From NCBI GenBank assembly GCA_964354655.1, contig CAYHAL010000003.1, positions 3,670 to 67,669 of the forward strand: 64,000 nucleotides of DNA, written 5' to 3'. How positions within the stretch are numbered: position 1 is the first letter of the stretch; each line of letters starts with the position of its first letter. A program made the translations under genes and the position numbers. Below are positions 16,586-48,781 of this stretch, in pieces. A model generated the notes under the pieces. The model made no database searches and was not told where the DNA came from. It was given only the letters and a program-made list of their open reading frames with translations. The stretch is from an uncultured Dehalococcoidales bacterium. Its GTDB lineage: Bacteria; Chloroflexota; Dehalococcoidia; Dehalococcoidales; E44-bin46.

Positions 16586-16630
16586 AATAACCCGAGTAAG
16601 TAGGTCATTACTCGGGTTATTTTTATTTTT
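16586..16630. terminator. Bidirectional Rho-independent terminator between convergent livM and livG
   Basis: AATAACCCGAGTAA (16586-16599) pairs with TTACTCGGGTTATT (16608-16621). An A-tract precedes it and TTTTATTTTT follows. Confidence 0.7.
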
Positions 16631-16671
16631 GTCGTTAAAATAGCCGTTACCGAGCTATAGGTAAGTTGATA

Positions 16672-19831: not shown

Positions 19832-21009
19832 GAGTAGCCATTGTTGGGGGGAAACTGCAGGGAGTTGAAGCGGCTTTCCTAGCTCGTGAAGCAGGGTGGG
19901 AAGTAATTCTTATCGATAGGAAACAGAGCCCACCAGCAGCCAGATTATGCCAATCTTTTTATCACTGTGATGTTGTTAGAGATGTTTCATCTTTACCTCG
20001 GTTATTAGAAAAAGTTGATTTGATTATCCCGGCAGTTGAGGATGTTATTGCCCTTAGAGCTTTACAGAAATGTGCTGCCGAGATAAACATCCCTTTAGCT
20101 TATGATGCCAAAGCATATTTTATCAGCCATTCCAAGAAGCGTTCTAACCGCCTATTTGAAAAATTGGGCATTCCCTTGCCCCAAAGTTGGCCCCAGTGTG
20201 GACTGCCACTTATAGTAAAACCATCTGCCTCAAGCGGGAGTCATGGAGTATCCAAGCTATGCACTGAACAGGAACTGGGTGATTTTATTAAACGGGTAGG
20301 TTCAGGGCTGAAACACTGGATTTTACAGGAATATGTGGAGGGTCCGTCCTATTCTATCGAGGTCTTGGGTTTAGTTGGACGTTACGTAGCTCTCCAGGTC
20401 ACCGAGCTCGAGATGGATGGCGACTATGACTGTGAACGGGTTCTCGCCCCTGCCGAAATTCCAGAGTCTTTAGATAGGCAAATTAAAGAAATTGCCCTCA
20501 CTATTGCCAAGAGCCTTCGTTTGAAAGGAATTATGGATGTTGAGGTTATCCTTGACCATGGTGGTGTTCCTAGGGTGTTAGAAATTGATGCCCGACTTCC
20601 AAGTCAGACTCCTACCGCAGTTTATGAGTCCACAGGGATTAATATGTTGGAACTATTAGGGCACATATTTGTCACAGATACGATGCCTGTAATCCCTGAA
20701 ATAAAAGCATTAAGAGGAGTTGTCTACGAGCATATTAAGGTTTCCCAAAATGGTTTAGAATTTCTGGGAGAACATATTATAGGAGAAGTCGATTCCCTTG
20801 AAATTGTCCACGATTTTTTTGGAGCCGACGTAAGTCTGACAAACTTTAATTCATCGTCATTTCCTTGGGTAGCTACGTTGATTACTACCGGAGAAAGCCG
20901 AGAACAAGCGTGGCTTAAACGTCAGCAAGTTATTGAAAATATTAAAAGTTATCTTGGAAGACCCACTCGCTTCCAAAGCCAGCCTGAAGAGATGGTAAAA
21001 ACGGGTTAA
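19828..21009 (+). CDS. pylC: ATP-grasp 3-methylornithine--L-lysine ligase
   Basis: 393-aa ATP-grasp fold protein that overlaps the pylB stop by 4 nt. Its last 6 codons lie inside the pylT-derived repeat. Confidence 0.85.
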   Translation: MRVAIVGGKLQGVEAAFLAREAGWEVILIDRKQSPPAARLCQSFYHCDVVRDVSSLPRLLEKVDLIIPAVEDVIALRALQKCAAEINIPLAYDAKAYFISHSKKRSNRLFEKLGIPLPQSWPQCGLPLIVKPSASSGSHGVSKLCTEQELGDFIKRVGSGLKHWILQEYVEGPSYSIEVLGLVGRYVALQVTELEMDGDYDCERVLAPAEIPESLDRQIKEIALTIAKSLRLKGIMDVEVILDHGGVPRVLEIDARLPSQTPTAVYESTGINMLELLGHIFVTDTMPVIPEIKALRGVVYEHIKVSQNGLEFLGEHIIGEVDSLEIVHDFFGADVSLTNFNSSSFPWVATLITTGESREQAWLKRQQVIENIKSYLGRPTRFQSQPEEMVKTG

Positions 21010-21067
21010 TCGGGAAGATCACGCAGACTCTAAATTTGTGTAGCCGAGTGTAACTCTTGCCCCGCCA
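21003..21067 (+). pseudogene. Degenerate pylT copy (tRNA-Pyl-like; acceptor and T stems disrupted)
   Basis: The sequence is GGGTTAATCGGGAAGATCACGCAGACTCTAAATTTGTGTAGCCGAGTGTAACTCTTGCCCCGCCA. The D arm, the 6-bp anticodon stem, the CUA anticodon loop and the T loop are all retained. The 5' acceptor is shortened (GGG versus GGGGGG), and 4 nt are missing from the 3' T-stem/acceptor region relative to 29854..29925. Confidence 0.55.
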
Positions 21068-21920: not shown

Positions 21921-21944
21921 AAATATGTAGAAAGGAGGTGATTG

Positions 21945-23446: not shown

Positions 23447-24847
23447 TTACAGCTTAAACTCGAACCCAATTTTCTCCATGGTTTTCATTGCCTGCCCCAG
23501 CACTTGTAGATGCTCATCGGTGGGCTTCAGAGTGATAACGTTGTAGCACTCCTGGAAGGTCTTTCCTAAGGGTGCCGTGTTGAAGTTCCTCTTTGGCCCT
23601 GTCCCCTCGTAGTGGGTCACCAGCTTATCAAGTAAGTAGTTCACCTTTTCTGTCTCCATGCCGGCTACAGCTCGGGCGGCATAAGCCATCATGCGTGCTT
23701 CTATTGGGGTGGTGTAGTCTAGTCTCGTGCCTTTGGCCGAGGCGCAACCGCTCATAATCTCACGACCGCTAGCAGTATCGGTAATAGCCTGCCCAGCCGC
23801 CTCCAGCAAGCACATCTCAGTGCATGGTCCAGCGGCAGTATAATACTGGTTACCGGTGATAAAGTGTGAGTGGCGCTCAATAGCCATATTGGCATGCCCA
23901 GCGATCAACAACGTCTCCCTAGCCGTTGTGATTCCCCAGCGCACATGAGTTGGTCCATCCAGATGCCAGTCTGCTCCCACCAGTACGGGAGAGTTTAGAT
24001 GAGTGGCGGTGCAAACGATGGTGGTCTCTTCGAGCCCTCCGGCCCAGCCTCCCATGATAGGCATCTGCTCACACATAACAATATCGCCGTTCATCCTGTA
24101 ATGAGCAACAAAGGTAAGCGCCTCGAGATCAATCTTGAGCTCGCATAGCTGACTTACCTCATGATTATCACATGGTCTCATTCCTTCAGGAAAATCGGCA
24201 GCGATAACTCCCGCCGTGGTAAGCGGAGTCTCAGGGCCCTAGAAGCCCATCCCGGGGCGACCAGCTCGCCGTACTGCTTCACGAAGCGCCATTGCTTCTG
24301 CTTTAGCCGCCAAAATATCCCATGGGGTATTGGATGCCAAGGGGTGTCCATAGATAGTATTCCAAACCCCGTTGACGATGCAGTCTACCAAGGGCTCCCT
24401 GGCGAATGCTTCATGCGTCTCAATAAAGATATCCTCACTGACTGGGGCTCCAGTCGGCCCACCTTGGCACAGGGGTGGGCAGGGGTCATCAAAACTTCGG
24501 CCAGTCACACGCCGGGCATCCCGTCCCTCACCGATGACGATCTCACGAGGGACACCAGCCATAGTGTTCAGTATCTCCTCTTCGGTGTACTTGATGACAC
24601 GGCCGGTATCGATGCATAAAGTCCCACAGGTGACCAGCATCTCAAGGCCGGCCTGGAATAGGCGGTCTATCATATCCATATCAGTGGGGATAATCTTGGT
24701 CTTGTCGAACTTAAGATTATACTTTTCCTTTAATTTCCTTGCTGTTTCGGGGATGATTTTTCGATCCCATTCCGCCTCATCTACTTTGGGACCGGTAAGT
24801 GCCCGATCATAACTCTCGAACACATCACCCCTCTCTTTAACTACCAT
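23447..24847 (-). CDS. mtmB: Monomethylamine:corrinoid methyltransferase with an in-frame UAG (pyrrolysine) codon at 24241-24239
   Basis: Track ORFs 24239..24847 (202 aa) and 23447..24181 are in frame, and only a TAG interrupts them. The context is GRPGMG-TAG-GPET. Downstream segments NHEVSQLCELKIDL, WHLDGP, AAGPCTEMCLLEA, ITDTASGREI and GKTFQECY match remembered MtmB. Confidence 0.88.
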
Positions 24848-29390: not shown

Positions 29391-29461
29391 TTCGTCCCTC
29401 CTTTAATCGGTATCGGCTATTTTACTCTCTCTCCGTTTTCCTATTCCTCGTCCTCATTATC

Positions 29462-29824
29462 TTAATCCTTAGCCCCCACCTCTCGTGTCTTTCCCCCCAA
29501 ATTGTCTAAATAGGCAATCCGGCGACGCTTAAAAACTGTTGCCGAATATTTTTCAATCTTCCATTTAGGAATTCCACATTTCTCGCATGTCCTAGAAAAC
29601 CATTTATTACGAAGCCATCGGGCAGCACGACTATTTCTAGAATCGTGTATCACCATCTGTTTATTACAATGAGTAACCACATAAGCATAAGAATCACTGG
29701 TAATTTCAAAGGTTTTGATTCCATGGAGAACTCCCCGCCGGGAAGGCCATAGTTTTATCTTTTCTACCAATTTAAAAAGGGGGACTCGTCTCCAATAGAT
29801 TTTTTTTCGTGTCTTACCCGACAA
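29462..29824 (-). CDS. pylSn: Pyrrolysyl-tRNA synthetase N-terminal tRNA-binding protein (bacterial split form)
   Basis: 120 aa with a TTG start behind GGGGGAGAGAG. Segments KLWPSRRGVLHGIK..., NSRNSRAARWLRNKWFSRTCEKCG resemble the PylRS N-domain (zinc-binding, basic). It lies immediately downstream of pylT. Confidence 0.8.
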   Translation of the reverse strand: MSGKTRKKIYWRRVPLFKLVEKIKLWPSRRGVLHGIKTFEITSDSYAYVVTHCNKQMVIHDSRNSRAARWLRNKWFSRTCEKCGIPKWKIEKYSATVFKRRRIAYLDNLGGKTREVGAKD

Positions 29825-29853
29825 CTCTCTCCCCCATTATTTTGATCAAATTG

Positions 29854-29925
29854 TGGCGGGGGGTCCGAGAGTTACACTCGGCTACACAAATTTAGAGTCT
29901 GTGTGATCTTTCCGATTAACCCCCC
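29854..29925 (-). tRNA. pylT: tRNA-Pyl (anticodon CUA), CCA encoded
   Basis: The minus-strand sequence is GGGGGGT-T-AATC-GGAAA-GATC-A-CACAGA-CTCTAAA-TTTGTG-TAG-CCGAG-TGTAACT-CTCGG-ACCCCCC-G-CCA. It has a 7-bp acceptor, one nucleotide between acceptor and D stem, a 5-nt D loop without GG, a 6-bp anticodon stem, a 3-nt variable loop and a non-canonical T loop. These are the published hallmarks of tRNA-Pyl. Confidence 0.9.
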
Positions 29926-29940
29926 GTTTTTACCATGCCT

Positions 29941-30771
29941 TCACTGAACACAACTGGCATGAACAAACATGGTAGCCACACCAATCTCCAGCACATCATG
30001 AATCAAACGCTCTTTGACCAAGAAATAAGCCTCTTCACTTAATCCCAGCGGTATCCCGGGAGCAGCAATAAAAGTTTCTGGCTTGATATGTCTTGCCTGT
30101 ATAATATTAGCCGAAGGTGAAGCATCAAAAAATACTGTATATCGCCTAAGTGCCTCTTCTAGATTCCTTTCCACTGTAATTTCATGCCCTTTAACCAGTG
30201 ACTCCATTCTATCTTGATTAGGGTCAAAAGCTGCTACCTTCGCTCCCTTCTTTTTAAGAGATAAAACTGCATTCCAGCCCACCCGACCTGCTCCCCCAAT
30301 CACTAACACCTGGCGCTGGCTTAAATCTCCTGCCATGGCTTCTAATGCCGAAACATATCCTTTTGCTGTTGCCTCTACATTATCAATAATCCTCCTTAAG
30401 GGAAAGTTCAGGGCAATAAACCGGTTATCATCAGCCAAAAAAACAATGTCTGCGCCTTTCTCAATCCCTTCCGCCAGTCCAGCTATATCGCTATCCCTTG
30501 TTTTAAAAGCATTAACTCCAATGTGAATCAAAATTCCTTCAACCGCCTCAACAAAGTTTTCAATAACTCCTTGTCCCGAGGTTATGGGAACCACAGCTAC
30601 CGTATGGGAACCGATGGCAGCTCTTACCTTTTCTTCGCTGTCTTCTATAGAGCGACTGGCAATCTCTTTGAGTGACAAACCTGTTTTTCGAACTAACTCA
30701 GCCTCATAGGCAGGAAGTTTCTGTATTATATCCATTATATCTTCTTTTTTCAGGCGCGTCACCTCATTCAC
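29941..30771 (-). CDS. pylD: Pyrrolysine synthase (NAD-dependent dehydrogenase)
   Basis: 276 aa with the Rossmann motif VLVIGGAGRVGWNA. It is adjacent to pylT/pylSn and completes the pylBCD set. Confidence 0.85.
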   Translation of the reverse strand: MNEVTRLKKEDIMDIIQKLPAYEAELVRKTGLSLKEIASRSIEDSEEKVRAAIGSHTVAVVPITSGQGVIENFVEAVEGILIHIGVNAFKTRDSDIAGLAEGIEKGADIVFLADDNRFIALNFPLRRIIDNVEATAKGYVSALEAMAGDLSQRQVLVIGGAGRVGWNAVLSLKKKGAKVAAFDPNQDRMESLVKGHEITVERNLEEALRRYTVFFDASPSANIIQARHIKPETFIAAPGIPLGLSEEAYFLVKERLIHDVLEIGVATMFVHASCVQ

Positions 30772-30966
30772 CCTCTGGACGATGAAAATATACCAGCAAG
30801 ACCCACCCCTTCAGACTGGCTTTGGAAGCAGTGGGTCTTCCAAGGTAACTCTATCTTGAAACTTGCATCCCTTTCTTGGCTATCGAAAATTCTAACATAC
30901 CCCGCTCGCTCCTTGTCAAGCGCAGTAGCTTTCCCCCCTGATTCAACTCCTAGCTTTCTGAAGAGT

Positions 30967-30997
30967 TTGACAAAATCGATTCTAACGGTGTTATAAT
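30967..30997 (+). promoter_or_regulatory. Candidate promoter for mttB-mttC (extended -10)
   Basis: TTGACA (30967-30972), then TGTTATAAT ending at 30997. The spacer is 19 nt, which is long, so confidence is low. Confidence 0.3.
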
Positions 30998-31205
30998 GAA
31001 GCCAAACTGGTTAGTATTCCCTTCCTTTATAAGCCTGGTGCTGCGCTAGCACTGGGGAAATTTATAGCATAATCGGTCTTGCTGACGCTAGTGTAAAGGC
31101 AAAAGAGTGGATCCCAAAATGGTGAAAGGAGGTGAGAAATTAGGGTTAGGATTAATTTAGTTTCAAAATAGTGAGGTTAAAAAAATTAAAGGAAGGAGGG
31201 GAAAA

Positions 31206-32678
31206 ATGATTAGAGGAACGAGAGCCTCATATACACAACTTTCAGGCTGTGGTCTCAATATGTTTACCGATGATGAATTAGCTGAGCTGCATAGAGCCAC
31301 ACTGGATGTTCTAGAAGATGGCGGCATCATGGTGCTCAATGATGAAGCGCAGGAGATTTTCTACTCCCACGGCTGTAAAGTCGATAAGAAAACTAACATC
31401 GTCAAGATACCCCCTTACCTCGTCAATGAGGCAATAAATTCAGCTCCATCAAAGGTACTGCTTGCCGGTCGAAATCCCAAGTATGACATCGTCTTGGAAG
31501 GCACCAGGGTGGCAAACACCACCTTTGGTGTAGGCATAAAGGTGCTTGATTTAGACACGGGCAAACACAGAAACTCGACAAACAAAGATCTGGCTGAATC
31601 CGCAATATTAGCCGATGCTATTGAGGGAGTAGATGTTTTTACCCAGTCAGTGGTCCCCAGAGATGCACCTAGTCAGGTGGAAGACCTTATTGCTGCCGAG
31701 ACATGTCTTAGCAATTGTAGCAAACACTTCCACCATGTTGATATATTGTCTACCGAGAGTGTCAGAAGGTATTTTGACATGGGTGCTGCCATAGCCGGAA
31801 GCGCTGAGGAGATGAGGCGGCGACCGGTTTGTTCTATTCTAATCTGCCCGGTCAGCCCGTTGCAGCTTAGTCCTGAAGCCTGCGAGGTTATTATTGAATC
31901 GGCAAGGTTAGGCATACCCTGTAACATTTTGTCAATGGCGCTATCTGGGGGTACTGCCCCAGTCACCAATGCAGGAACACTGATAGTCCATAATGCCGAG
32001 GTGCTGGGGGGCATAACTTTAAGCCAGCTTACTAAGAAGGGAGCACCGGTAATCTATGGCAGCTCCACCACCATGTTCGATCTAGCCCTGGCCATCGCAC
32101 CGGTGGGAGCACCGGAAATGGGCATGATAAGCGCAGCGGTAGCCAAGCTTGGCCAGTATTACAACCTGCCGACTTATGTCTCCGGGACCTAGGCAGATTC
32201 TAAGGTACCTGATGCGCAGGCAGCTCACGAAAAAACGATAACAAATCTGCTGCCGGCCATCGCTGGGGCTAATCTGATTTATGGCATGGGTATGTTAGAA
32301 TCAGGACAGACTTGGAGTCATGAGCAACTGGTAATTGATAACGACATTGTAACTATGGTTAAACGGGTGATTCAGGGGATCGACGTTACCGATGATACAA
32401 TGGCCGTTGACATCGTAAAGCAGGCTCATAAGATAAAAGACTTCTTACATCAGAAACACACCATTCAGTTTATGAGAAGTCAATCAAGACCAAAATTGAT
32501 TGACCGCACTACCCGGGGAACTTGGGAGGCTAAGGGAGGCAAAGATTTAACCCAGAGGGCAAAAGAAGAAGCACGCAGGATCATAAAGACCCATCAACCT
32601 GAGCCTTTAAGCGATGATGTAAAGAAGACGCTACGCGAAATTGTTGACAGTGCTAGAAAAGAACTTGTACCTGATTGA
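31206..32678 (+). CDS. mttB: Trimethylamine:corrinoid methyltransferase with an in-frame UAG (pyrrolysine) codon at 32190-32192
   Basis: Track ORFs 31206..32192 and 32286..32678 share one frame. The only interruption is the TAG in ...YVSGT-TAG-ADSKVPDAQAAHEKT.... The joined product of about 490 aa has an MttB-family sequence (LNDEAQEI, ANLIYGMGMLESG). Confidence 0.9.
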
Positions 32679-32715
32679 TAACTTTCTAATAACCAGAAGA
32701 AAGGAGAGCACTACT

Positions 32716-33366
32716 GTGGCAAAAGCACAAGAGATATTAGCAGCGGCAAAAAAAGCCATTATTGACTACGATGTGGTTAAGGCTGAGGAGGTTGCCAGGG
32801 AGGCTTTGGCTAGTGGTGTTGATCCGGTGGCACTGATAGAAAAGGGGTTTACTGCTGGAATAGCTGAGGTTGGTGACCGTTTTGATAAGGGGGAGGCATA
32901 CTTGCCAGAATTAATATTGGCGGCTGATGCCATGAAAGCAGGAACAGCAGTATGTGAGGCGGCACTCCCTAAAGGAACAATTAAGGAAAAGAAGAAGGTA
33001 GTAATAGGGACGGTGGAAGGAGATATTCACGACATCGGGAAGTCAATTGTTGCTTCCTTTTTAGCCGCCAACGGATTTGAGGTTCACGACATCGGTAGAG
33101 ATGCTCCTGCTGAGAAATTTGTGGAAACAGCTCGTGAGGTAAAAGCAGATGTGGTTGGGGCTAGCGCTCTATTGACAACAACTATGGAGCAGCAGAAGAA
33201 GATAGTGGAAGCGCTGAAAGAAGCCGGGCTGCGAGATAAAGTTAAAATAATTGTCGGTGGAGCACCAACCAGCCAGGAATGGGCTGAACAGATCGGAGCC
33301 GATGCCTATGCTGAAAATGCTGCGGAGGCAGTAGCTAAGGTAAAGCAATTAACCGGTTTGCAATAA
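32716..33366 (+). CDS. mttC: Trimethylamine-specific corrinoid protein (B12-binding)
   Basis: GTG at 32716 behind AAGGAGAG. The GDIHDIGK motif is present. It is highly similar to 21267..21920. The track start at 32641 overlaps mttB and is unlikely. Confidence 0.85.
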   Translation: MAKAQEILAAAKKAIIDYDVVKAEEVAREALASGVDPVALIEKGFTAGIAEVGDRFDKGEAYLPELILAADAMKAGTAVCEAALPKGTIKEKKKVVIGTVEGDIHDIGKSIVASFLAANGFEVHDIGRDAPAEKFVETAREVKADVVGASALLTTTMEQQKKIVEALKEAGLRDKVKIIVGGAPTSQEWAEQIGADAYAENAAEAVAKVKQLTGLQ

Positions 33367-33513
33367 GGAAATCTTAGTTAAAGCACTCTGTGAGAGAATG
33401 GAGGGATTGCTATAGGCTTTAAGGCTGGCTAATTTGGGCTGGCCAGAAGCTATGAGGTCCGAAGAGGTCTTCCCATGATTAACAGCCTATAAATTTGTTG
33501 AATGGCTCGTGGA

Positions 33514-33541
33514 TTGACATTTTATAATAATATGGTATTAT
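33514..33541 (+). promoter_or_regulatory. Candidate sigma70-type promoter for ABC importer unit 2
   Basis: TTGACA (33514-33519), 16-nt spacer, TATTAT (33536-33541). Confidence 0.4.
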
Positions 33542-33627
33542 GAGAGGAATTATAAACGGAGGGAATGCCTATGATGGAATGAATAATATTGGGGTGTTGA
33601 GGATAGAAATTTTAGAGGAGGTTTTAG

Positions 33628-38552: not shown

Positions 38553-39806
38553 ATGAAAGCAGATAGGTCTATTGTAGTTATTGGCGGTGGCATAGCGGGG
38601 ATAACTTCAGCATTAGAATTAGCCAATAGTGGTTTCACAGTATACTTAATAGAGAAGGAGGCACGAATTGGAGGGCAAGCAGCCTCCTTCTGTTGCAAAG
38701 CCACGGAAGTTTGCTCTAAATGCTCCGCCTGCCTCCTCCCTCAAAGGATTAGTGAGATAGCAAGTTATCCCCAAATCTCAATCCTGACTAATTCAACGGT
38801 GGTGGGGGTAAATGGCGAACTGGGCAACTTTCAGGTGGAGGTTTGCCAAAAGCCCCAATATATCTCCCCTAAAAAATGCATCGCCTGTGGAATGTGCATC
38901 GGGGTTTGCCCCACCACGCCTAAGGCAATCCAGTCCCCTCCCCCCGAGGCAGTTCCTTATTCCTATTCCATTAGTGAATCCCAGTGCCTCTACCTCAAAA
39001 GGGAGGAGTGCAACCTCTGCCGGGAAATATGCCCCACCAACGCTATAATCTTTGGGCAAAAACCCGAAAGGCAAAAACTGAATAATGTGGGGGCAATCAT
39101 TGTGGCCACCGGCTTTGACGTCTTTAATGCTCGAGAACTTGGCTGCCTGGGTTATGGCAGATACCCTAATGTTTTAACTGGTTTTGACCTGGAGAAGATT
39201 TTCAGAAATCAGGGCTCTCTTAAGCTTCCCTCAAATGCAAAGGAACCGAAGAAGGTCGCCTTTATCCAATGTGTCGGCTCAAGGGACGAAAATCATGGCT
39301 ATTGCTCCCAAGTATGCTGCAAATATGCCATGAGACTGGCTCGACTTATCACATATCAAAATCCTGATGCTGAAGTTACTATCTTTTACATTGATCTTCA
39401 AACCGCGGGAAAGGGCTTTGCCCAGTTTTATAAGGAATATCAGGAAAGTATCCGATTTATCCGGGGCGTGCCAATCGAAATCTCAGAGGCTCCCTCTGAT
39501 GAAGTTGAGGTGAAATTTGAGAATATTGCAGAAGGAAGGGTTGAGCGAGAAAACTTTGACCTTGTAACTCTTTCAGTAGGTATCGCCCCCAGAAAAGACT
39601 CTTGGGAGCTGGCCAAAGTTTTGGGAATAAATCTAGAAGATGATGGCTTCTTCGACATCAAGGGGCCGCTCAATACCACAGAAACCAACGTTGACGGGGT
39701 CTTCCTTGCCGGAGCTTGTCAGAGTCCCAAGGATATCCCTGATTCAATCGCTCACGGAATCTCGGCAGCAGAAAGAGCGATGGAGGTTTTACAGAGATGC
39801 AAGTAA
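38553..39806 (+). CDS. HdrA-like FAD-dependent oxidoreductase with an inserted 2x[4Fe-4S] ferredoxin domain (short form)
   Basis: 417 aa with the FAD motif VIGGGIAGITSALELANSG, the clusters CIACGMCIGVCP and CNLCREICP, and the HdrA-typical IQCVGSRDENHGYCSQVCC. Confidence 0.75.
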   Translation: MKADRSIVVIGGGIAGITSALELANSGFTVYLIEKEARIGGQAASFCCKATEVCSKCSACLLPQRISEIASYPQISILTNSTVVGVNGELGNFQVEVCQKPQYISPKKCIACGMCIGVCPTTPKAIQSPPPEAVPYSYSISESQCLYLKREECNLCREICPTNAIIFGQKPERQKLNNVGAIIVATGFDVFNARELGCLGYGRYPNVLTGFDLEKIFRNQGSLKLPSNAKEPKKVAFIQCVGSRDENHGYCSQVCCKYAMRLARLITYQNPDAEVTIFYIDLQTAGKGFAQFYKEYQESIRFIRGVPIEISEAPSDEVEVKFENIAEGRVERENFDLVTLSVGIAPRKDSWELAKVLGINLEDDGFFDIKGPLNTTETNVDGVFLAGACQSPKDIPDSIAHGISAAERAMEVLQRCK

Positions 39807-41428
39807 AGATGGGCGTTTTTCTCTGCGACTGTGGGGGGAGTTTAAAGAACATAGATTTCCCTAAAGTTAGGGAGAATTTAGAGGACCTTGAAGACGTCGC
39901 CTTTGTAGACATAAGCCATAATCTGTGCCTTGAAGAAGGGGAAAAAGCGATAACTTCAAGGACCCTGACTGAGAACATCGATAGAGTGGTAATCGCTGCT
40001 TGCTCACCAGAGTTCTGTGAGCGTAATTTTGCCAGGCTTCTAGAAAAGCTTAGGCTTAACCCCAATCTTCTTTCCCTGGCAAATATCAGAGAGCAATGTT
40101 CATGGGCTCATGAAGGAGATGTCACTAGGAAGGCGCTGGAACTGATAATGATGGCCGTGGATAAAGCTCGGCTGCTTCAGCCAGTGGAGAGAAAGGAAGT
40201 TGCGGTAAACAAAGAGGTCCTAGTGGTAGGTGGAGGATTCTGCGGGATGAAATCCTCTCTTGAGCTTTCCCAGCTTGGGATTAGGACTACTCTAGTGGAA
40301 AGAGAGCCGACCTTGGGGGGAAAGCTTAAGGAGCTTGAAGGATTTTATGGCTCCCAAAGAGAGGCGATGATAAAAGCAGTAGAAAAAGAGGAAAACATTG
40401 AGATTCTCACCTCTGCTGAAGTGATAGGGGTAGAAGGGAAGATAGGGGATTTCAGGGTAAGGATAAGGAGGGAGACAAAGGAAATCTTGCGAACTTTTGG
40501 AGCCATAGTTTTCGCCACTGGGTATAAAACCGAGATCACTGCTGGGGACTTCCCGCTTAAGCCGGGCATTAACATCATTTCGCAAAAGAGACTGGCCCAG
40601 ATGCTTCAAACTCCAACTCTAGAAGCAAGCCCCGAAACCATAGGTTTTATATTTGACCTCTCCGACGAGAACTCTCGTTTCCCAACACTGGCCACCTTAA
40701 ATAATGCCTTAGCAGTTAAACAGAGGTGGGGCAGCGAAGTTTATGTCTTCTGCAAGAACGTCAAAGTGGATAGCGAAGGAGTGGAAAAACTGTACCGGGA
40801 GGCAAGAGAGAAGGGAGTGATGTTCTTAAAGTTTGACAAGAATCCCAAGATTTCAGCAGATGACAGCCGAGTGAGAATCGATGCGGGAGATACTCTACTC
40901 GGGGAAGAGATAGCACTAACCTGCGACCTTGTGGTTGCCGAGGAGAAATTGTTGCCTGCCGAAGGTACTGAAGGTTTAAGCTCCGTGCTAAAGATAAGAA
41001 CCGACTCCCAGGGTTTTTACCAGGAGGAAAATGTGCACCTTTATCCTGTTTCCTCAGAGAGGAAAGGGATATTCTTTGTTGGAAATTGTCGAGGGGATTT
41101 AGACCTTGGCCGAGTGTTAGCAGATATTTCCAGCGTTGTTGCCATAGTCCACGAACTGTTATCTCTGGGGAAGATTATGGTGGAGGTAGAGCGGGTTAAG
41201 GCAGATCCCCAAAAGTGTGTGGCATGCCTCACTTGCATCCGTGCCTGCCCGCACCGTGCCGTCCAACTGGTTCACATAGATAGCGAGAAAGTGGCGGCTG
41301 AAATTTCCCAGCTTGCCTGTGATAAATGCGGTATTTGCGCTGCTATTTGCCCGGCCAAGGCTATAAAATTTGAGGGCTATAGTGATGACCAAATCTTGGC
41401 TCAAATTGAAGCAATAGGGGTATCATGA
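39797..41428 (+). CDS. HdrA-like flavoprotein, second unit (N-terminal CxCGG domain, FAD domain, C-terminal 2x[4Fe-4S])
   Basis: 543 aa with GVFLCDCGGSL, REQCSWAH and VVGGGFCGMKSSLELSQLG. The C-terminal clusters are CVACLTCIRACP and CDKCGICAAICP. The internal CVGSRD...CC cysteines are replaced by FDLSDENSRF. It overlaps the upstream gene by 10 nt. Confidence 0.7.
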   Translation: MQVKMGVFLCDCGGSLKNIDFPKVRENLEDLEDVAFVDISHNLCLEEGEKAITSRTLTENIDRVVIAACSPEFCERNFARLLEKLRLNPNLLSLANIREQCSWAHEGDVTRKALELIMMAVDKARLLQPVERKEVAVNKEVLVVGGGFCGMKSSLELSQLGIRTTLVEREPTLGGKLKELEGFYGSQREAMIKAVEKEENIEILTSAEVIGVEGKIGDFRVRIRRETKEILRTFGAIVFATGYKTEITAGDFPLKPGINIISQKRLAQMLQTPTLEASPETIGFIFDLSDENSRFPTLATLNNALAVKQRWGSEVYVFCKNVKVDSEGVEKLYREAREKGVMFLKFDKNPKISADDSRVRIDAGDTLLGEEIALTCDLVVAEEKLLPAEGTEGLSSVLKIRTDSQGFYQEENVHLYPVSSERKGIFFVGNCRGDLDLGRVLADISSVVAIVHELLSLGKIMVEVERVKADPQKCVACLTCIRACPHRAVQLVHIDSEKVAAEISQLACDKCGICAAICPAKAIKFEGYSDDQILAQIEAIGVS

Positions 41429-41811
41429 ACGGGGAAATTATAGCTTTCTGTTGTGAACATTCCGCCTATGCTGCTGCTGATGCGGCGGGGAAGCAAGGAC
41501 TTCACTACCCAGAAAACCTGCGAGTTATCCGGGTTCCCTGTGCTGGGAGGGTGGATATAATCCATATGCTGAAGGCCTTAGAGGAAGGCGCTGCAGCGGT
41601 ACTAGTGCTCGGCTGTGAAGATGGACTTTGCCAACATCTAACCGGAAATGTAAGGGCAAAGGAGAGGGTAAAATATTCCGAGACGCTATTGAAAGAGGTC
41701 GGGATAGATGGCGGGCGTGTGGAAATGTTCAACCTTGCCGCCAATGCCCCTCATAAGTTCATCAAGATAATAAATGAAATGAATGAAAGAATAAAGGAGC
41801 GGGAGAGGTAA
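41425..41811 (+). CDS. mvhD: MvhD-like [2Fe-2S] electron-transfer protein
   Basis: 128 aa with IIAFCCEHSAY...IRVPCAGRVD...GCEDGLCQH, typical of the FlpD/MvhD family. Confidence 0.8.
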   Translation: MNGEIIAFCCEHSAYAAADAAGKQGLHYPENLRVIRVPCAGRVDIIHMLKALEEGAAAVLVLGCEDGLCQHLTGNVRAKERVKYSETLLKEVGIDGGRVEMFNLAANAPHKFIKIINEMNERIKERER

Positions 41812-41812
41812 A

Positions 41813-42472
41813 ATGATAATCGCTGAAAGAAAACCTATGGAAGAAATCCTCCAGATGATAGCCCCCTATAAGAAGGTACTTCTGGCCGGTTGTGGGACAT
41901 GTGTTGCCATCTGCTGGACGGGAGGAGAAAAGGAGGTCGGAATACTGGCTTCACAACTTCGGCTTGCCCGAGGTAAGGAGGGGGACAAGACCAATACTGT
42001 TGAAGCTACGGTTGAGAGGCAGTGTGAAAAGGAGATGGTAGAAGAGCTTAGAGACAAAGCCGAGGGAGTTGAAGCAGTTCTTTCTCTAGCCTGTGGGGCT
42101 GGGATACAAACCCTGGCTGAGGTATTTGAGGACAAGCCAGTTTTTCCAGCCGTGAATACCACCTTCCTCGGCAGTCCTGAAGGAGAGGGGGTGTGGCTGG
42201 AGAATTGTGGCGCCTGCGGGGATTGCTTCCTTGACCGAACCGGGGGTATCTGCCCCATGGTTCGCTGCGCCAAAGGGATTCTCAACGGTCCCTGTGGGGG
42301 CACAAGGAAGGGAGGGAAGTGTGAGATAGACCCAGATAAAGACTGTGGTTGGGTTCTCATCTACCGTAGGCTGGAGAAACAGGGAAGGCTTGACCTAATG
42401 CGGAAATATTATCCACCGAAAAACTTCCGGGCGGTGAAGAGACCGGGCAAGATGAAGGCGATAAAAGCTTAG
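41813..42472 (+). CDS. metV: Methylene-THF reductase accessory zinc-ribbon/FeS subunit
   Basis: 219 aa with CPMVRCAKGILNGPCGGTRKGGKCEIDPDKDCGW (MTHFR_C-like). It lies directly upstream of metF and ends in TAG. Confidence 0.8.
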   Translation: MIIAERKPMEEILQMIAPYKKVLLAGCGTCVAICWTGGEKEVGILASQLRLARGKEGDKTNTVEATVERQCEKEMVEELRDKAEGVEAVLSLACGAGIQTLAEVFEDKPVFPAVNTTFLGSPEGEGVWLENCGACGDCFLDRTGGICPMVRCAKGILNGPCGGTRKGGKCEIDPDKDCGWVLIYRRLEKQGRLDLMRKYYPPKNFRAVKRPGKMKAIKA

Positions 42473-42482
42473 GAGGCGAAGG

Positions 42483-43376
42483 ATGGCAAGGGATTTTAGA
42501 GAAACACTCAAAACAAAAGACTTTGTCGTAACTGCTGAGGCAGCTCCGACCAAAGGCTCTAGTGTAGAGAGGTCGCTGGAGCATATCGAGCTTCTCAAGG
42601 ATAAGGTAGATGCTCTCAATGTGACTGACAACCAGAGCTCGGTAATGCGCTATCCCTCTGTAGGCATCTGCCTTTTAATCAAAGAACACGGCGGGGAGGC
42701 AGTGCTTCAGGTCACCTGCCGGGACCGAAATCGCCTGGCAATTCAAGCGGATCTCCTCTTCGCCTGGTCTCGAGGGGTACGCAACGTCCTCTGTCTTACC
42801 GGTGATTCTATAGACGTTGGCGACCATAAGGAAGCAAAACCGGTCTTTGATCTCGAATCAGTGCAGCTTATCCACCTTGTCCATGCCTTGAACTCGGGCA
42901 AGGACATGGCGGGTAACGAGCTCAACGGAGGCACTGACTTCTGTATTGGGACTACTGCCACCCCTTCAGCCGACCCCATCGAGCCCCAGCTGGTTAAAGT
43001 GCAGAAGAAGCTGGAAGCCGGGGTAGACTTCATTCAAACACAGGCAGTTTACGACCTTGACGAGCTTAAGAGATTTGTGGAATTTGTGCGCAAACACGAC
43101 CAAAAGGTCAAAGTCCTATTGGGAATAGTGCCTGTTATTGGAGCAAAGATGGCACAATATATGAATGAGAACGTTCCCGGCATTTTTGTCCCTCAATATA
43201 TTATTGACGAACTGGCCCAAGCTCCGAAAGGCACAGGCATTAATAAAGGAATAGAGATAGCCGCCAGGTTAATAAGGAAAGCTAAGGAAGACAAACTATG
43301 CGATGGAACCCATATCATGTTCATTGGGAAAGAGGAGAGGGTTCCTGAGATTCTGGAAGCTGCCGGACTACTGTAA
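42483..43376 (+). CDS. metF: 5,10-methylenetetrahydrofolate reductase
   Basis: 297-aa MTHFR TIM-barrel sequence (VTAEAAPTKG, LQVTCRDRNR, LCLTGD, QTQAVYD). Confidence 0.85.
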   Translation: MARDFRETLKTKDFVVTAEAAPTKGSSVERSLEHIELLKDKVDALNVTDNQSSVMRYPSVGICLLIKEHGGEAVLQVTCRDRNRLAIQADLLFAWSRGVRNVLCLTGDSIDVGDHKEAKPVFDLESVQLIHLVHALNSGKDMAGNELNGGTDFCIGTTATPSADPIEPQLVKVQKKLEAGVDFIQTQAVYDLDELKRFVEFVRKHDQKVKVLLGIVPVIGAKMAQYMNENVPGIFVPQYIIDELAQAPKGTGINKGIEIAARLIRKAKEDKLCDGTHIMFIGKEERVPEILEAAGLL

Positions 43377-43399
43377 AAGAGTTAGCAAGGAGGGGAAAG

Positions 43400-43879
43400 A
43401 TGACCATAGTACTGAATGAACTAGATACCAAATTCAAATATGATATTGCTGCTGAACCGGGAGGGGAAAATATTAAGCTCTGCTTTGCTTGCGGGCTATG
43501 CACTGCTAGTTGCCCCGTTGCTGATATCGACCCTGAATTTAATCCACGGAGGATAATCCGCATGGTGCTTTTGGGGATGAGAAAGGAGGTTCTCTCCTCT
43601 TACGTTCCTTGGCTTTGCATCCAGTGTCATACCTGTCAGGCGCACTGCCCCCAGAATGTTAATTTCGCCGACCTGATGAAACCGCTAAGGAATATGGCAG
43701 TAAGGGAAGGGTATATCCACCCTTCCTTCGCCAAGAAGATAAAGGAGATTGATGCCTTCTCTCAGCGGCTGCGCAACCAAATGGTACGATCCATTGTAGA
43801 CAAGAAATCCGAGGAAACAAAAGTAGATGTGGCAAGACTTGCTGAGGAGACGCTGGGAAAAGAGAAGGCGAAGATTTAA
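43400..43879 (+). CDS. HdrC-like 2x[4Fe-4S] ferredoxin
   Basis: 159 aa with CFACGLCTASCP and CIQCHTCQAHCP, spaced as in HdrC/4Fe-4S dicluster proteins. Confidence 0.6.
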   Translation: MTIVLNELDTKFKYDIAAEPGGENIKLCFACGLCTASCPVADIDPEFNPRRIIRMVLLGMRKEVLSSYVPWLCIQCHTCQAHCPQNVNFADLMKPLRNMAVREGYIHPSFAKKIKEIDAFSQRLRNQMVRSIVDKKSEETKVDVARLAEETLGKEKAKI

Positions 43880-43893
43880 ATAAGGATTTAAAG

Positions 43894-46800
43894 ATGGCAG
43901 AATGTGTAGAGAGGTCTAAAGATAAGCATGTAGGAGCAGTGATGGTAGTGGGGGGAGGAATTGGTGGAATTCAAGCCTCACTTGACCTAGCTGAGTCTGG
44001 GTACAAGGTCTATTTGGTGGAGAAAACTCCAGCTATAGGTGGGGTTATGGCTCAGCTGGATAAGACCTTCCCCACTTTAGACTGTTCCATGTGTATACTC
44101 TCTCCAAAACTGATTGAATGTGGAAGACACCCTAATATTGAGCTACTTACCTGTTCAGAGCTTCTAGAGGTTGACGGAGAGCCAGGAAATTTCACCGCTA
44201 AGGTTTTACGGCATCCGAGATTTGTCGATATTAGTAAGTGCACTGGGTGTGGAGAGTGTGCTCCAGTTTGCCCCATAGCATGTGCCAGTGAATTTGAAGG
44301 GGGCTTGATAGAAAGAAAAGCGATATTTAGACCATTTGCTCAAGCCTATCCCAATGCTTTCGCTATCGATAAGAGACAGAGGGCCCCGTGTGTGTTGACT
44401 TGCCCTGCGGGGACCAACGTTCAGGGATATGTAGCTTTATGTGCCGAGGGCAAGTATGAAGAGGCACTCTCAGTAATAAAGGAAAAACTCCCTATCCCCA
44501 GGGTACTAGGAAGAATCTGCCCTGCCCCCTGTGAAGAGAAATGCAATCGCCGACTTTTAGAAGAGCCTCTTGCTATTCGAGCGATAAAGAGGTTCGTCGC
44601 TGATACCGCCAAAGGTAAGGCTTCATTGCCTGAAATAAAGGAGAAAGAGGAAAAGGTAGCCATCATTGGCTCAGGGCCAGCAGGACTTAGCTGTGCCTAC
44701 TGGCTGCGACTTGAGGGATATAAGGTTACCATATTTGAGGCGCTCCCTGTAACTGGAGGGATGCTTCATGTTGGCATTCCTGGATACCGTTTGCCCAAGG
44801 ACGTCGTTGAGGAAGAGATAAAAGAGATCGAAGCCTTAGGAGTGGAGATAAAGACCAACACTCCTATCGGCAAGCAGCTAACCCTCGATGACCTGCTACA
44901 GCAGGGATATAAAGCTGTGTTTATCGGTGTAGGAGCCCACCGAAGTCAGCAACTTGGTGTTCCCGGGGAGGATGCCACGGGAGTAATTCATGGTGTCGAT
45001 CTGCTCAGGGATATTAATCTAGGGAAAGAGGTGAAGACCAAAGGAAAGGTGGTGGTAATAGGTGGCGGAGATGTTGCTATAGATTCAGCCCGCTCCGCTC
45101 TCCGCTCACGCGCCGATGAAGTTAGCATTCTTTATCGCAGAACAAGGGTGGAAATGCCTGCCAGAGAGGAGGAGGTGCAGGCAGCCGAAACTGAGGGGAT
45201 AAAAATAGAATTTTTGGTAGCCCCTGTAGAAATTCTAACCAAAAATGGGAAGGTTAGTGGAATAAGGTGTATTCGCATGGAACTTGGTGAGCCAGATGCC
45301 AGCGGAAGAAGGCGCCCCATTCCTATCAGGGACTCCGAGTTCGATTTGAAGGTCGACGTGGTGATTCCAGCAATTGGGCAGGCCCCTGACCTATCGCCAT
45401 TAGAAAGTAGCGGGATAAATATTACCAGACGAGGCACCATTGAAGTTGACGCGGTAACCTTGGAAACATCCCGAAAAGGAATCTTTGCTGGCGGGGATTG
45501 CCAGACTGGCCCCTCCATTGCTGTTGAGGCTGTAGCCGCCGGTGCCCGGGCAGCAGAATCAATTATCAGATACCTGAACCATCAGGATATTAAAGAAGGA
45601 AGGCTACCTCCCCAAAGGGAGCCCTCCGATGTCACTTTTATTCCTTTGGGTCAAGCCAGAGAGCCGAGACAGAAGATGCCTACTATCCCTATAGAAGAAA
45701 GAACTTCTGGGTTTAAAGAGATAGAACTCGGCTTCCCTGAGGAACTGGCAACCAGGGAGGCGAGTCGCTGCCTGGCTTGTGGAATCTGCTCTGAGTGCAT
45801 GCAGTGTGTTGCCGCTTGTAAAGCCAATGCTATCGTTCACTCTATGAAGGAAGAGGTTACAGAATTAAAAGTGGGCTCGGTAATCCTCAGCCCTGGCTTT
45901 GATGAATTTGACCCACGTCCTCTCTTCCACTACGGATACAGGAGGTACCCCAACGTGGTAACCAGCATAGAATTTGAAAGGATGCTCTCAGCTTCAGGAC
46001 CATACCAGGGTAAGCTGGTAAGACCCTCGGATAGGAAACCACCTCAAAGAATCGCCTGGATTCAATGTGTTGGCTCTAGGGATGAAAGTTTGAATCGTGG
46101 ATATTGCTCTTCTGTCTGTTGCACTTACGCTATCAAAGAAGCTATTATCGCCAAAGAGCATACTCCCTTTGAATTGGAAGAAACTATCTTCTACATGGAT
46201 ATAAGAACTCATGGGAAGGATTTTGATAAGTTCTATGAACGGGGAAAGGCAGCAGGGATAGAGTTTATAAGAGCGAAGGTGTATGGAGTTGAGGAGGTAG
46301 ATGGCACAGGGAACTTGCTCCTCAAGTATCTTAGCGAGGATGACAAGCCGAGCACCCGTGAGTTTGATCTAGTTGCCCTGTCGGTAGGACTTGAGCCTTC
46401 CCCAGCAAGTGTTACTCTGGCAAAGAGACTTGGCATCCAAGTTAATAAATATGGATTTTGCCACACCAATGTCTTCTCCCCGTTGGAAACTTCTAGGCCC
46501 GGAATCTACGTCTGTGGGGCCTTTCAAGGCCCAAAGGACATCCCTGAGACAGTGATGCAGGCAAGTGGAGCAGCCGGAAGCGCATCTGCTTTGCTTGCTC
46601 CAGCACGAAATACCCTTATCACCAAAAAGGAATACCCACCGGAGAAAGATGTCACCGAGGAAGAGCCCAGAGTTGGTGTGTTTATCTGCCACTGTGGCAT
46701 CAATATCGGGGGATATGTGGACGTACCTCGAGTTACTGAATATGCGAAGACCCTTCCCAATGTAGTTTATGCCGAAAATAACCTCTACACTTGCTCTCAG

Positions 46801-48351
46801 GACACCCAGGAGAGAATAAAGGCTACCATCAAGGAACACAGTCTAAACCGTGTTATAGTTGCTTCATGCACGCCAAGAACCCATGAGCCCTTGTTCCAAG
46901 AAACTATGAGAGAAGCAGGCTTGAACAAATACCTCTTTGAAATGGCCAACATCCGTGACCAGTGCTCTTGGGTTCATATGCATGAGCCGGAGAAAGCCAC
47001 TGAGAAAGCGAAGGATTTGATTAGCATGGCAGTGGCAAAGGCAAGGCTTAAGGAGCCACTAAAGCCTCTGCTTATCCCAGTTAATCACTCCGCTTTGGTC
47101 ATCGGGGGAGGAGTGGCCGGGATGGTGAGCGGTTTAAACTTAGCGGAGCAGGGTTTCAAAGTCCATCTTATCGAAAGGACTGGCGACCTCGGTGGAATAG
47201 CGAGGAGGATGCACTATACCCTCGGTAGTGATGGCGTTCAAACCTTCCTTGCTGATTTGATTAATAGGGTTAAAGAACACCCTAACATTAAGGTCTACTG
47301 CGATACCGGGATTGTAGACGCCTACGGATATGTAGGGAACTTCACCACCGAGATAATGAGATATCCAGGTATGACCATAGAGAAGATAGACCACGGCGTC
47401 ACTATCATCGCTTGTGGGGCTGAGGAGTATAAACCGGAGGAATACTTCTACGGCAGGTACCCCAGGGTGCTCACTCAGCTCGAGCTTGAGGAGAAGATAG
47501 TCAAGGGAGAACCAGACATCATCAACTGCGACAACTTGGTTATGATCCAGTGTGTAGGCTGCCGAAATGATGAGCGACCCTATTGTGGCCGCGTATGCTG
47601 CAATGAGGCAATCAACAATGCCCTCAAGCTTAAAGAGGCAAAGCCCGATATGAATATCTATGTCTTCTATCGAGATATGAGGACCTATGGATTCTATGAG
47701 GACTACTATCACGAGGCAAGACGAAAAGGGGTTATATTCCTGTGCTACGACCCAGAAAATAAACCTAAAGTGAGCCAAGTGAGAAAGGATTCACGGTATC
47801 TAATAAGGGTTGAGGGTAAAGACCCAGTCATTGGGGAGAAAGTAGCTATTGATGCCGATATCGTTACCCTATCTGTGTCCATGATTCCTACGGAAGAAGC
47901 AAGAGAACTAGCAAAGTTCTACAAAGTGCCCTTAAACGAAGATGGCTTCTTCCTGGAAGCACATGTAAAGCTTCGGCCAGTGGACTTTGCCACAGATGGG
48001 GTCTTCATCTGTGGGCTTGCCCATGCTCCAAAGTCAATCGAGGAGATAATTGCGCAGGCTAGTGCTGCTGCTTCTCGGGCCACCACAGTATTGTCCAAGG
48101 AAACTATCATGGCTGAGGGCATCGTCGCCTCAGTAAACGAGGATATTTGCTCAGGTTGTGGCACCTGCGAAACGGTATGTCCTTACGGTGCTATTGCTGT
48201 GAATAAGCAAAAGGGAGTGGCTGAGGTTAACGAAACTTTGTGTAAGGGCTGTGGCACCTGCTGCGCTGCTTGTCCTTCAGGGGCTGCCCAACAGAGAGGC
48301 TTCACCACAAGGCAAATCTCAGCCATGGTGAGAGCTAGTTTGGGGGTTTGA
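43894..48351 (+). CDS. Giant HdrA-like / NAD(P)H-oxidoreductase (GltD/NfnB-like) / HdrA-like fusion flavoprotein (HdrL-like)
   Basis: 1485 aa. The N-terminus is an HdrA FAD domain (VVGGGIGGIQASLDLAESG, CSMC, CTGCGECAPVCP). Residues ~165-590 are GltD-like (CPAGTNVQGY..., CPAPCEEKC, VAIIGSGPAGLSCAYWL, VVVIGGGDVAIDSA). An HdrA core follows (CLACGICSECMQC, IQCVGSRDESLNRGYCSSVCC). A second complete HdrA unit comes next (GVFICHCGINIGG, RDQCSWVH, VIGGGVAGMVSGLNLAEQG, IQCVGCRNDERPYCGRVCC). The protein ends in 2x[4Fe-4S]. Confidence 0.75.
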   Translation: MAECVERSKDKHVGAVMVVGGGIGGIQASLDLAESGYKVYLVEKTPAIGGVMAQLDKTFPTLDCSMCILSPKLIECGRHPNIELLTCSELLEVDGEPGNFTAKVLRHPRFVDISKCTGCGECAPVCPIACASEFEGGLIERKAIFRPFAQAYPNAFAIDKRQRAPCVLTCPAGTNVQGYVALCAEGKYEEALSVIKEKLPIPRVLGRICPAPCEEKCNRRLLEEPLAIRAIKRFVADTAKGKASLPEIKEKEEKVAIIGSGPAGLSCAYWLRLEGYKVTIFEALPVTGGMLHVGIPGYRLPKDVVEEEIKEIEALGVEIKTNTPIGKQLTLDDLLQQGYKAVFIGVGAHRSQQLGVPGEDATGVIHGVDLLRDINLGKEVKTKGKVVVIGGGDVAIDSARSALRSRADEVSILYRRTRVEMPAREEEVQAAETEGIKIEFLVAPVEILTKNGKVSGIRCIRMELGEPDASGRRRPIPIRDSEFDLKVDVVIPAIGQAPDLSPLESSGINITRRGTIEVDAVTLETSRKGIFAGGDCQTGPSIAVEAVAAGARAAESIIRYLNHQDIKEGRLPPQREPSDVTFIPLGQAREPRQKMPTIPIEERTSGFKEIELGFPEELATREASRCLACGICSECMQCVAACKANAIVHSMKEEVTELKVGSVILSPGFDEFDPRPLFHYGYRRYPNVVTSIEFERMLSASGPYQGKLVRPSDRKPPQRIAWIQCVGSRDESLNRGYCSSVCCTYAIKEAIIAKEHTPFELEETIFYMDIRTHGKDFDKFYERGKAAGIEFIRAKVYGVEEVDGTGNLLLKYLSEDDKPSTREFDLVALSVGLEPSPASVTLAKRLGIQVNKYGFCHTNVFSPLETSRPGIYVCGAFQGPKDIPETVMQASGAAGSASALLAPARNTLITKKEYPPEKDVTEEEPRVGVFICHCGINIGGYVDVPRVTEYAKTLPNVVYAENNLYTCSQDTQERIKATIKEHSLNRVIVASCTPRTHEPLFQETMREAGLNKYLFEMANIRDQCSWVHMHEPEKATEKAKDLISMAVAKARLKEPLKPLLIPVNHSALVIGGGVAGMVSGLNLAEQGFKVHLIERTGDLGGIARRMHYTLGSDGVQTFLADLINRVKEHPNIKVYCDTGIVDAYGYVGNFTTEIMRYPGMTIEKIDHGVTIIACGAEEYKPEEYFYGRYPRVLTQLELEEKIVKGEPDIINCDNLVMIQCVGCRNDERPYCGRVCCNEAINNALKLKEAKPDMNIYVFYRDMRTYGFYEDYYHEARRKGVIFLCYDPENKPKVSQVRKDSRYLIRVEGKDPVIGEKVAIDADIVTLSVSMIPTEEARELAKFYKVPLNEDGFFLEAHVKLRPVDFATDGVFICGLAHAPKSIEEIIAQASAAASRATTVLSKETIMAEGIVASVNEDICSGCGTCETVCPYGAIAVNKQKGVAEVNETLCKGCGTCCAACPSGAAQQRGFTTRQISAMVRASLGV

Positions 48352-48352
48352 A

Positions 48353-48781
48353 ATGGCTGAAAAAAAGAATTTTGAGCCAAAAATAATAGGATTTTGTTGC
48401 AACTGGTGCTCCTATGCTGGTGCTGACCTTGCCGGTGTTTCACGGCTTCAATATCCCCCCAATTTAAGGATGATAAGAGTGATGTGTTCTGGGTCAGTAA
48501 ATCCAGAGCACATCCTTGAATCCTTTCGCCAAGGCGCTGACGGAGTATTTATAGGAGGGTGTCACCCCGGAGATTGTCACTACATATCGGGAAACTATAA
48601 GATGCGGAGGAGGGTTTCGCTCTTAAAGAAGCTTCTGTCACAGTTTGGGCTGGAACCTGAAAGACTGAGACTTGATTGGGTCTCCGCCGCGGAGGGACAG
48701 AGGTTTGCCCAGATAATGACTGATTTTACCGAAGAAATTAAGAAATTAGGGCCGATTACCGCTACCTCCCTACCATGCTGA
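48353..48781 (+). CDS. mvhD: MvhD-like [2Fe-2S] electron-transfer protein (second copy)
   Basis: 142 aa with IIGFCCNWCSYAGADLAG...IRVMCSGSV...GCHPGDCHY. Confidence 0.8.
   Translation: MAEKKNFEPKIIGFCCNWCSYAGADLAGVSRLQYPPNLRMIRVMCSGSVNPEHILESFRQGADGVFIGGCHPGDCHYISGNYKMRRRVSLLKKLLSQFGLEPERLRLDWVSAAEGQRFAQIMTDFTEEIKKLGPITATSLPC

Follow-up and report, generated by a model that had tools for sequence, protein, structure and literature searches.

A putative pyrrolysine-type trimethylamine methyltransferase gene, mttB, in a methylamine gene island of an uncultured Dehalococcoidales bacterium

The window analysed here is a stretch of 64,000 nucleotides from an uncultured Dehalococcoidales bacterium (Chloroflexota; assembly GCA_964354655.1, contig CAYHAL010000003.1, positions 3,670 to 67,669 of the forward strand). 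At 31206-32678 it carries mttB, the gene of a trimethylamine:corrinoid methyltransferase (MttB) that contains an in-frame TAG at codon 329, and around it lie genes for the synthesis and the charging of pyrrolysine (Pyl), for two further methylamine methyltransferases and for the corrinoid proteins MttC and MtbC (Table 1). Judged from sequence comparison, the window very probably holds a pyrrolysine-dependent methylamine-utilisation island, of which 31206-32678 would be the MttB gene.

The mttB gene and its in-frame TAG

The gene starts with an ATG at 31206 on the plus strand (AAGGAAGGAGG lies upstream) and, read through the TAG, comprises 490 sense codons including the UAG. It ends in a TGA (32676-32678) which is directly followed by a TAA, and past the TAG there is no other stop. 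The peptide over the TAG position reads LPTYVSGT, then the TAG, then ADSKVPDAQAAHEKT. A sequence-only reading of this DNA had described two open reading frames (ORFs), 31206..32192 and 32286..32678, as parts of one frame separated by a TAG at 32190-32192, and these coordinates are exact. The offset of the two ORFs is 1080 nucleotides (360 x 3), and the second ORF is simply what follows the first ATG within the mttB frame as it continues past the TAG. The downstream part is accordingly in register with the upstream part, by 360 whole codons and by one Pfam MTTB match that crosses the TAG. A read-through frame of this kind is far beyond chance. A promoter and terminator scan of 29400-33700 gave nothing better than shuffled sequences.

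For profile and PDB searches the TAG of the mttB product was translated as X. The Pfam MTTB family (PF06253) gave one unbroken match covering residues 17-486 of 490. The sole NCBIfam match was TIGR02369, a curated equivalog model that sets Pyl-type MttB apart from the other members of the superfamily (cutoff 525 bits). The best PDB match was the MttB of Methanosarcina barkeri (7XCL/7XCM, 498 bits). In this alignment codon 329 falls exactly on X334 of 7XCL, i.e. Pyl334, as the sequence-only reading had expected of a Pyl-type enzyme, whereas the non-Pyl glycine betaine methyltransferase MtgB of D. hafniense (2QNE, 200 bits) has a leucine in this column. Over its whole length the window protein is 52% identical to M. 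barkeri MttB (477 aligned residues) and 29% identical to MtgB. The Pyl column of the window gene holds a TAG rather than a sense codon, and its closest similarity is not to the non-Pyl members. With MtgB it shares the TIM-barrel superfamily and the partnership with a corrinoid protein. Other non-Pyl relatives of MttB carry A, V, M, H, F, W or Y in the Pyl column.

The active site is likewise conserved. According to Li et al. 2023 (PMC9842639), Gly110, Met249 and Tyr364 of M. barkeri MttB position and activate Pyl334, with Gly110 acting via its carbonyl and a cis peptide bond to Thr111. The alignment to 7XCL shows all three residues to be kept in the window protein, as G108, M244 and Y359. Thr111 is replaced by Val109, and only the backbone of Thr111 is implicated in the M. 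barkeri enzyme.

Conservation of the TAG and of the sequence behind it

Homologous loci were collected by a scan of one genome per GTDB species with an alignment of N-terminal fragments as query, which returned 80 loci. All of the loci that reach the site (77/77) carry a TAG at the homologous codon, followed by [A/G/T]D[S/A]K and then by 155-175 more in-frame codons. They include archaea (Methanococcoides, Methanomassiliicoccus) as well as bacteria of at least five phyla. The ratio of nonsynonymous to synonymous substitution (dN/dS; pairwise Nei-Gojobori, window mttB against ten Dehalococcoidales homologues) is 0.07-0.13 before the TAG and 0.06-0.22 after it, and purifying selection acts on the part of mttB 3' of the TAG. 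In these pairs the synonymous sites come close to saturation; the TAG is nonetheless kept. Within the protein, conservation is highest in codons 330-360, the stretch of 31 codons from the TAG to the ATG at 32286, which is 74% identical to M. barkeri MttB, compared to 52% overall.

These results bear directly on the simplest alternative, in which the TAG is a true terminator and the locus either a pseudogene or a split gene for a 328-residue N-terminal protein and a 130-residue C-terminal protein starting at ATG 32286. Standard ORF calling and public gene callers do give two ORFs, database entries of relatives are 328-residue fragments, and TAG terminates 11 of the 49 annotated genes of the window. 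If the TAG were a stop, however, the 31 codons behind it would be untranslated, yet no part of the protein is better conserved, and the low dN/dS downstream would be equally unexpected. The segment after the TAG also holds the D-S-K motif and the active-site region around Tyr359, the complete Pyl machinery lies within 14 kb, and the TAG occupies the same codon in every homologue that reaches the site, in bacteria and archaea alike. We regard termination at this codon as extremely improbable. On the question whether the TAG is translated, three independent lines of evidence (the invariant TAG, the dN/dS values and the conservation of codons 330-360) say yes, as far as comparison of sequences can tell, and the residue inserted at codon 329 would be pyrrolysine.

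Pyrrolysine genes and the methylamine island

The sequence-only reading had spoken of a full pyl cassette, which holds in that pylSc, pylB, pylC, pylD, pylSn and pylT are all six present in the window, though they are split over two strands: pylSc-B-C lie on the plus strand and pylD-pylT-pylSn on the minus strand, some 9 kb apart. No part of the Pyl machinery is more than 14 kb from mttB.

Table 1. Positions of the genes and other features discussed in the text (window coordinates unless a related locus, L, is named).
Feature	Position	Strand	Basis or remark
Paralogous Liv/Urt-type transporter set	13128-17466
pylSc	17837-18673	+	TIGR02367 360 bits, above cutoff
pylB	18716-19831	+	TIGR03910 482.5 bits, above cutoff
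pylC	19828-21009	+	TIGR03909 433.2 bits, above cutoff
Decayed second pylT copy (pseudo-tRNA), right after pylC	21003..21067	+	relaxed ARAGORN; alignment to pylT
mtbC, dimethylamine branch	21267-21920	+	corrinoid partner of mtbB
mtbB, dimethylamine methyltransferase	21942-23363	+	TIGR02368 matches both halves
mtmB, monomethylamine methyltransferase	23447..24847	-	Pfam MtmB 658 bits on read-through product; 1TV2/1L2Q E = 2.4e-160
Lone LivF-like ATPase between the two transporter sets	25150-25857	-
RACo-type reductive activase of corrinoid proteins	25968-27800	-	RACo_C_ter, Raco_middle, Fer2
Small protein like MetH activation domain	27813-28565	-	
Methyl-tetrahydrofolate:corrinoid methyltransferase	28587-29390	-	Pterin_bind; NF005719 279 bits, cutoff 259
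pylSn, small N-terminal subunit of pyrrolysyl-tRNA synthetase (PylRS)	29462..29824	-	TIGR03912 127 bits, cutoff 51
pylT, tRNA-Pyl(CUA), between pylD and pylSn	29854..29925	-	relaxed ARAGORN (-ps) and CTCTAAA motif scan
pylD, divergent from mttB	29941..30771	-	PylD_N; TIGR03911 266.6 bits, cutoff 150
mttB, Pyl-type trimethylamine:corrinoid methyltransferase	31206..32678	+	Pfam MTTB 329.8 bits; TIGR02369 723.7 bits; 7XCL E = 1.9e-148
In-frame TAG of mttB (codon 329), putative pyrrolysine codon	32190..32192	+	homologous to Pyl334 of M. barkeri MttB
Rfam PYLIS_3 (RF02510) match, "pyrrolysine insertion sequence" of mttB	32190..32289	+	93 bits, gathering threshold 38
mttC, cognate corrinoid protein	32716..33366	+	TIGR02370 251 bits; 7XCN chain M E = 6e-68
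Liv/Urt-type ABC transporter: binding protein	33628-35100	+	Pfam/NCBIfam
Liv/Urt-type ABC transporter: permeases	35187-36062, 36055-37023	+	Pfam/NCBIfam
Liv/Urt-type ABC transporter: ATPase	37126-37893	-	Pfam/NCBIfam
HdrA-like, MvhD, MetV, MetF and ferredoxin-type genes (methylene-tetrahydrofolate reductase complex)	38553..48781	+	Pfam MTHFR, DUF5981/MetV, FlpD, Pyr_redox_2, Fer4
Non-Pyl mttB paralogue (P0002)	L084 637-2115		adjoins PALP enzyme and ornithine cyclodeaminase genes
Trp (TGG) / TAG mttB paralogues, close on the same contig	L085 2521-3999, 6496-7974		
Trp (TGG) / TAG mttB paralogues, close on the same contig	L086 1598-3100, 3227-4696		

The pylT cloverleaf (minimum free energy -27.2 kcal/mol, z = -3.05) has the compact build expected of tRNA-Pyl: its D-loop is 5 nucleotides in size, its anticodon stem is long, its variable region is very short, and its T-loop lacks the T-psi-C consensus. 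The discriminator is a G, and the CCA is encoded. L001, the locus most closely related to the window, has this tRNA at the corresponding position. A search for tRNA-Pyl upstream of pylSc (17400-17900) found none. The second copy behind pylC has lost 3 nucleotides of the 5' acceptor strand and another 4 where the T-stem meets the 3' acceptor strand; together these deletions destroy the acceptor and T stems and leave no cloverleaf (z = -0.08). The DNA around this copy shows homology to the 3' end of pylD and to the spacer that follows the functional pylT and, since the cassette is also split, this suggests a past duplication or inversion of the pyl cassette.

Directly 3' of mttB follows mttC, with a GTG start after the ribosome-binding site AAAGGAGAG and a DxH cobalt-ligand motif at D103 and H105 (egDiHdiGk, aligned to M. 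barkeri MttC, its best PDB match). Two further methyltransferase genes of the island contain an in-frame TAG. That of mtbB lies at 23013-23015 (codon 358), at the Pyl site, and is covered by an Rfam PYLIS_2 match at 23013-23112. The one in mtmB, at 24239-24241, is codon 203 and corresponds in the alignment to Pyl202 of M. barkeri MtmB1, which makes mtmB a third Pyl gene, one on which the sequence-only reading was silent; in NCBIfam neither half-ORF of mtmB found a match. The pyl and methyltransferase genes are flanked by the two Liv/Urt-type transporter sets, each with two permeases, a LivG-like ATPase and a binding protein some 490-500 residues long. We consider these transporters candidate methylamine importers. 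The MetF/MetV cluster directly downstream of the island contains two MvhD genes, codes for an HdrA/GltD-like fusion protein of 1485 residues and resembles the electron-bifurcating methylene-tetrahydrofolate reductase complexes of acetogens.

A separate observation concerns the terminators. Within limits that were picked after the data had been seen (13128-37893), none of the 22 genes of the island ends in TAG, compared to 11/27 genes outside (Fisher p = 0.0005). Foreign base composition was rejected as a cause, for the island and the DNA outside it have the same GC content, 0.485. The absence of TAG terminators may reflect selection against read-through of genes that are co-expressed with tRNA-Pyl.

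Relatives, substrate and proposed route

The closest loci all come from metagenome-assembled genomes (MAGs) of Dehalococcoidales or Dehalococcoidia (94-58% identity), and an exact fragment of the MttB protein was found in Logan assemblies of the runs ERR4334734-6. In L001 the methyl-tetrahydrofolate methyltransferase gene, pylSn, pylT and pylD face mttB-mttC; in the Dehalococcoidales loci L002, L005 and L007 mtbB and mtmB accompany an mttB-mttC-binding protein-permease order, which is kept in all three. A neighbour-joining tree of 61 MttB-superfamily sequences (Kimura distances, 100 bootstraps, Pyl column removed, MtgB as outgroup) places the window protein beside L001 (100%) within a Dehalococcoidales clade (100%), and the clustering with non-Pyl members that would have spoken against the sequence-only reading is not seen. 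In this clade 11 genes bear a TAG and two are derived non-Pyl paralogues; the immediate 10-member subclade of the window protein is all TAG. Deep nodes of the tree are weak (27-62% support).

The two non-Pyl paralogues (P0001 and P0002) were the two full-length top matches of the window protein, and we considered them as a sign of non-Pyl membership. This was rejected, as their identity to the window protein is 72% and 69%, compared to 94% for TAG-truncated relatives. They form a derived pair branching inside the TAG-bearing clade. Their Pyl site reads GLGM-Y-GK (TAT, with one extra residue), and the equivalents of Gly110 and Met249 are changed as well, so that the active site has been remodelled by Gly-to-Ala, by Ser-Met-to-Pro-Glu and, at the Pyl site, by a tyrosine together with one inserted residue. 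Relative to the window protein their termini are 85-88% identical and the barrel core just 52-68%. The pair looks like a recent loss of pyrrolysine accompanied by a change of substrate. Beside P0002, an ornithine-cyclodeaminase/mu-crystallin gene (L084 3259-4239) is broken by an in-frame TGA (ITAV-TGA-TGAVSGVATKHLA) at a position where, from the family motif, we presume a conserved arginine; this TGA could be a mark of a pseudogene, a sequencing error or recoding.

Some database proteins have a tryptophan in this column. We had considered a gene-caller artefact, which it is not, because the codons at the Pyl position are genuine TGG. Trp and TAG paralogues lie close together on the same contig in two loci, and the Trp copy of L085 (P0021) is 92% identical to its TAG-bearing neighbour. 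A single-base change from TAG to TGG seems to have happened repeatedly, in several lineages (P0021, P0037/38/47, P0085/86, P0089).

That the UAG and the full pyl cassette argue for a genuine trimethylamine methyltransferase, as the sequence-only reading had put it, is supported by homology, by the conserved active-site residues and by a TIGR02369 score about 200 bits above the cutoff; on the first two grounds we infer trimethylamine as the probable substrate. A Pyl-containing enzyme of the MttB family acting on another methylated amine (tertiary or quaternary), with the paralogues as products of substrate diversification, would fit the two to three divergent TAG-bearing paralogues per MAG (L002, L004; L005, L009, L011; 58-88% identity to the window protein), the remodelled active sites of P0001/P0002, and the identity of just 52% to M. 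barkeri MttB, the sole biochemically characterised enzyme in the comparison. In contrast, the equivalog cutoff is exceeded by a wide margin, the counterparts of Gly110, Met249, Pyl334 and Tyr364 are all kept, and the co-located mtbB and mtmB encode exactly the enzymes for the demethylation products of trimethylamine. Another substrate therefore seems very unlikely to us.

Several points weigh against the reading as a pyrrolysine-dependent island with MttB at its centre. The pylT gene was missed by default ARAGORN and by Rfam, both at the gathering threshold and at an E-value threshold over 29800-29980. Because TAG also ends 11 of the 49 window genes, the organism gives UAG an ambiguous meaning, and part of the mttB product is probably truncated to 328 residues; since UAG is not reserved for pyrrolysine, read-through of mttB must be partial, regulated or tolerated. 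The fold of the PYLIS_3 match is indistinguishable from shuffles (z = -0.69) and without thermodynamic support; despite the high Rfam score we make no claim for a structured read-through element here, and the match may well reflect conservation of the coding sequence rather than a stable RNA structure. Finally, with several mttB paralogues per Dehalococcoidales MAG and non-Pyl derivatives within the clade, substrate specificity may not be uniform.

A bacterial tetrahydrofolate-linked route from trimethylamine via dimethylamine to monomethylamine is the most economical reading of the island. Pyrrolysine would be built from two lysines by PylB, PylC and PylD, and tRNA-Pyl(CUA) would be charged by the split synthetase PylSc + PylSn. 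UAG codon 329 in the mttB mRNA would then be read by this tRNA, giving the 490-residue enzyme instead of a 328-residue fragment. In the predicted enzyme the pyrroline imine of Pyl329 would bind and activate trimethylamine, assisted by Tyr359 and the backbone of Gly108 in the manner of Tyr364 and Gly110 in M. barkeri, and one methyl group would pass to the Co(I) of MttC and from there to tetrahydrofolate via the pterin-binding methyltransferase. Corrinoid inactivated to Co(II) would be re-reduced by RACo. The remaining methyl groups of dimethylamine and monomethylamine would be removed by MtbB/MtbC and MtmB, respectively, and methyl-tetrahydrofolate could be linked to the methyl branch of the Wood-Ljungdahl pathway by the neighbouring MetF/MetV/Hdr/Mvh genes. 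We infer this direction of one-carbon flow through methyl-tetrahydrofolate.

With M. barkeri MttB (7XCL/7XCM/7XCN; Li et al. 2023, PMC9842639) the window gene shares family and architecture, the UAG at the Pyl334 column and an adjacent MttC with DxH motif. The host is bacterial, however, PylRS consists of the separate proteins PylSc and PylSn, MttC presumably hands the methyl group to tetrahydrofolate through a pterin-binding methyltransferase instead of to coenzyme M through MtbA, the activase is of the RACo type, and an ABC transporter adjoins the operon. Bacterial Pyl-type MttB systems are established and are described for Acetohalobium arabaticum, for human-gut Bilophila-type bacteria and for marine Deltaproteobacteria (PMC7593587, PMC8318568), and Mukai et al. 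2017 (PMC5424206) reported PylRS genes of the Chloroflexi/Dehalococcoides lineage from metagenomes. Like the bacterial systems so described, the window has split pylSc/pylSn, pylBCD and pylT clustered with mtxB/mtxC genes, and the in-frame TAG makes automatic annotation truncate or misname the gene. Unlike them, its cassette lies on two strands about 9 kb apart with a decayed second pylT, and all three methylamine methyltransferases are gathered in one island.

Going further, one could see the island as a conditionally expressed code-expansion module purged of TAG terminators, and the Pyl-MttB paralogues, including the recent changes from Pyl to Tyr and from Pyl to Trp, as signs of an ongoing gain and loss of Pyl dependence or of substrate diversification beyond trimethylamine. 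We regard this wider view as speculative and rather unlikely.

The mttB of the window is an ordinary member of the known Pyl-MttB family. Genes of this kind are already well known, and what is known of pyrrolysine or of MttB is unchanged by it. The practical value lies in annotation repair: among the matches listed, nearly all of the 120 closest database relatives appear cut short at 328 residues, and P0005 bears the name "glycine betaine methyltransferase". With the TAG read correctly, the two "fragment" ORFs would become a single functional enzyme. Taken with mtbB and mtmB, this indicates that this uncultured Dehalococcoidales bacterium can probably remove all three methyl groups from trimethylamine and pass them to a tetrahydrofolate-linked one-carbon metabolism, which would bear on methylamine cycling and on the competition with methylotrophic methanogens in anoxic sediments.

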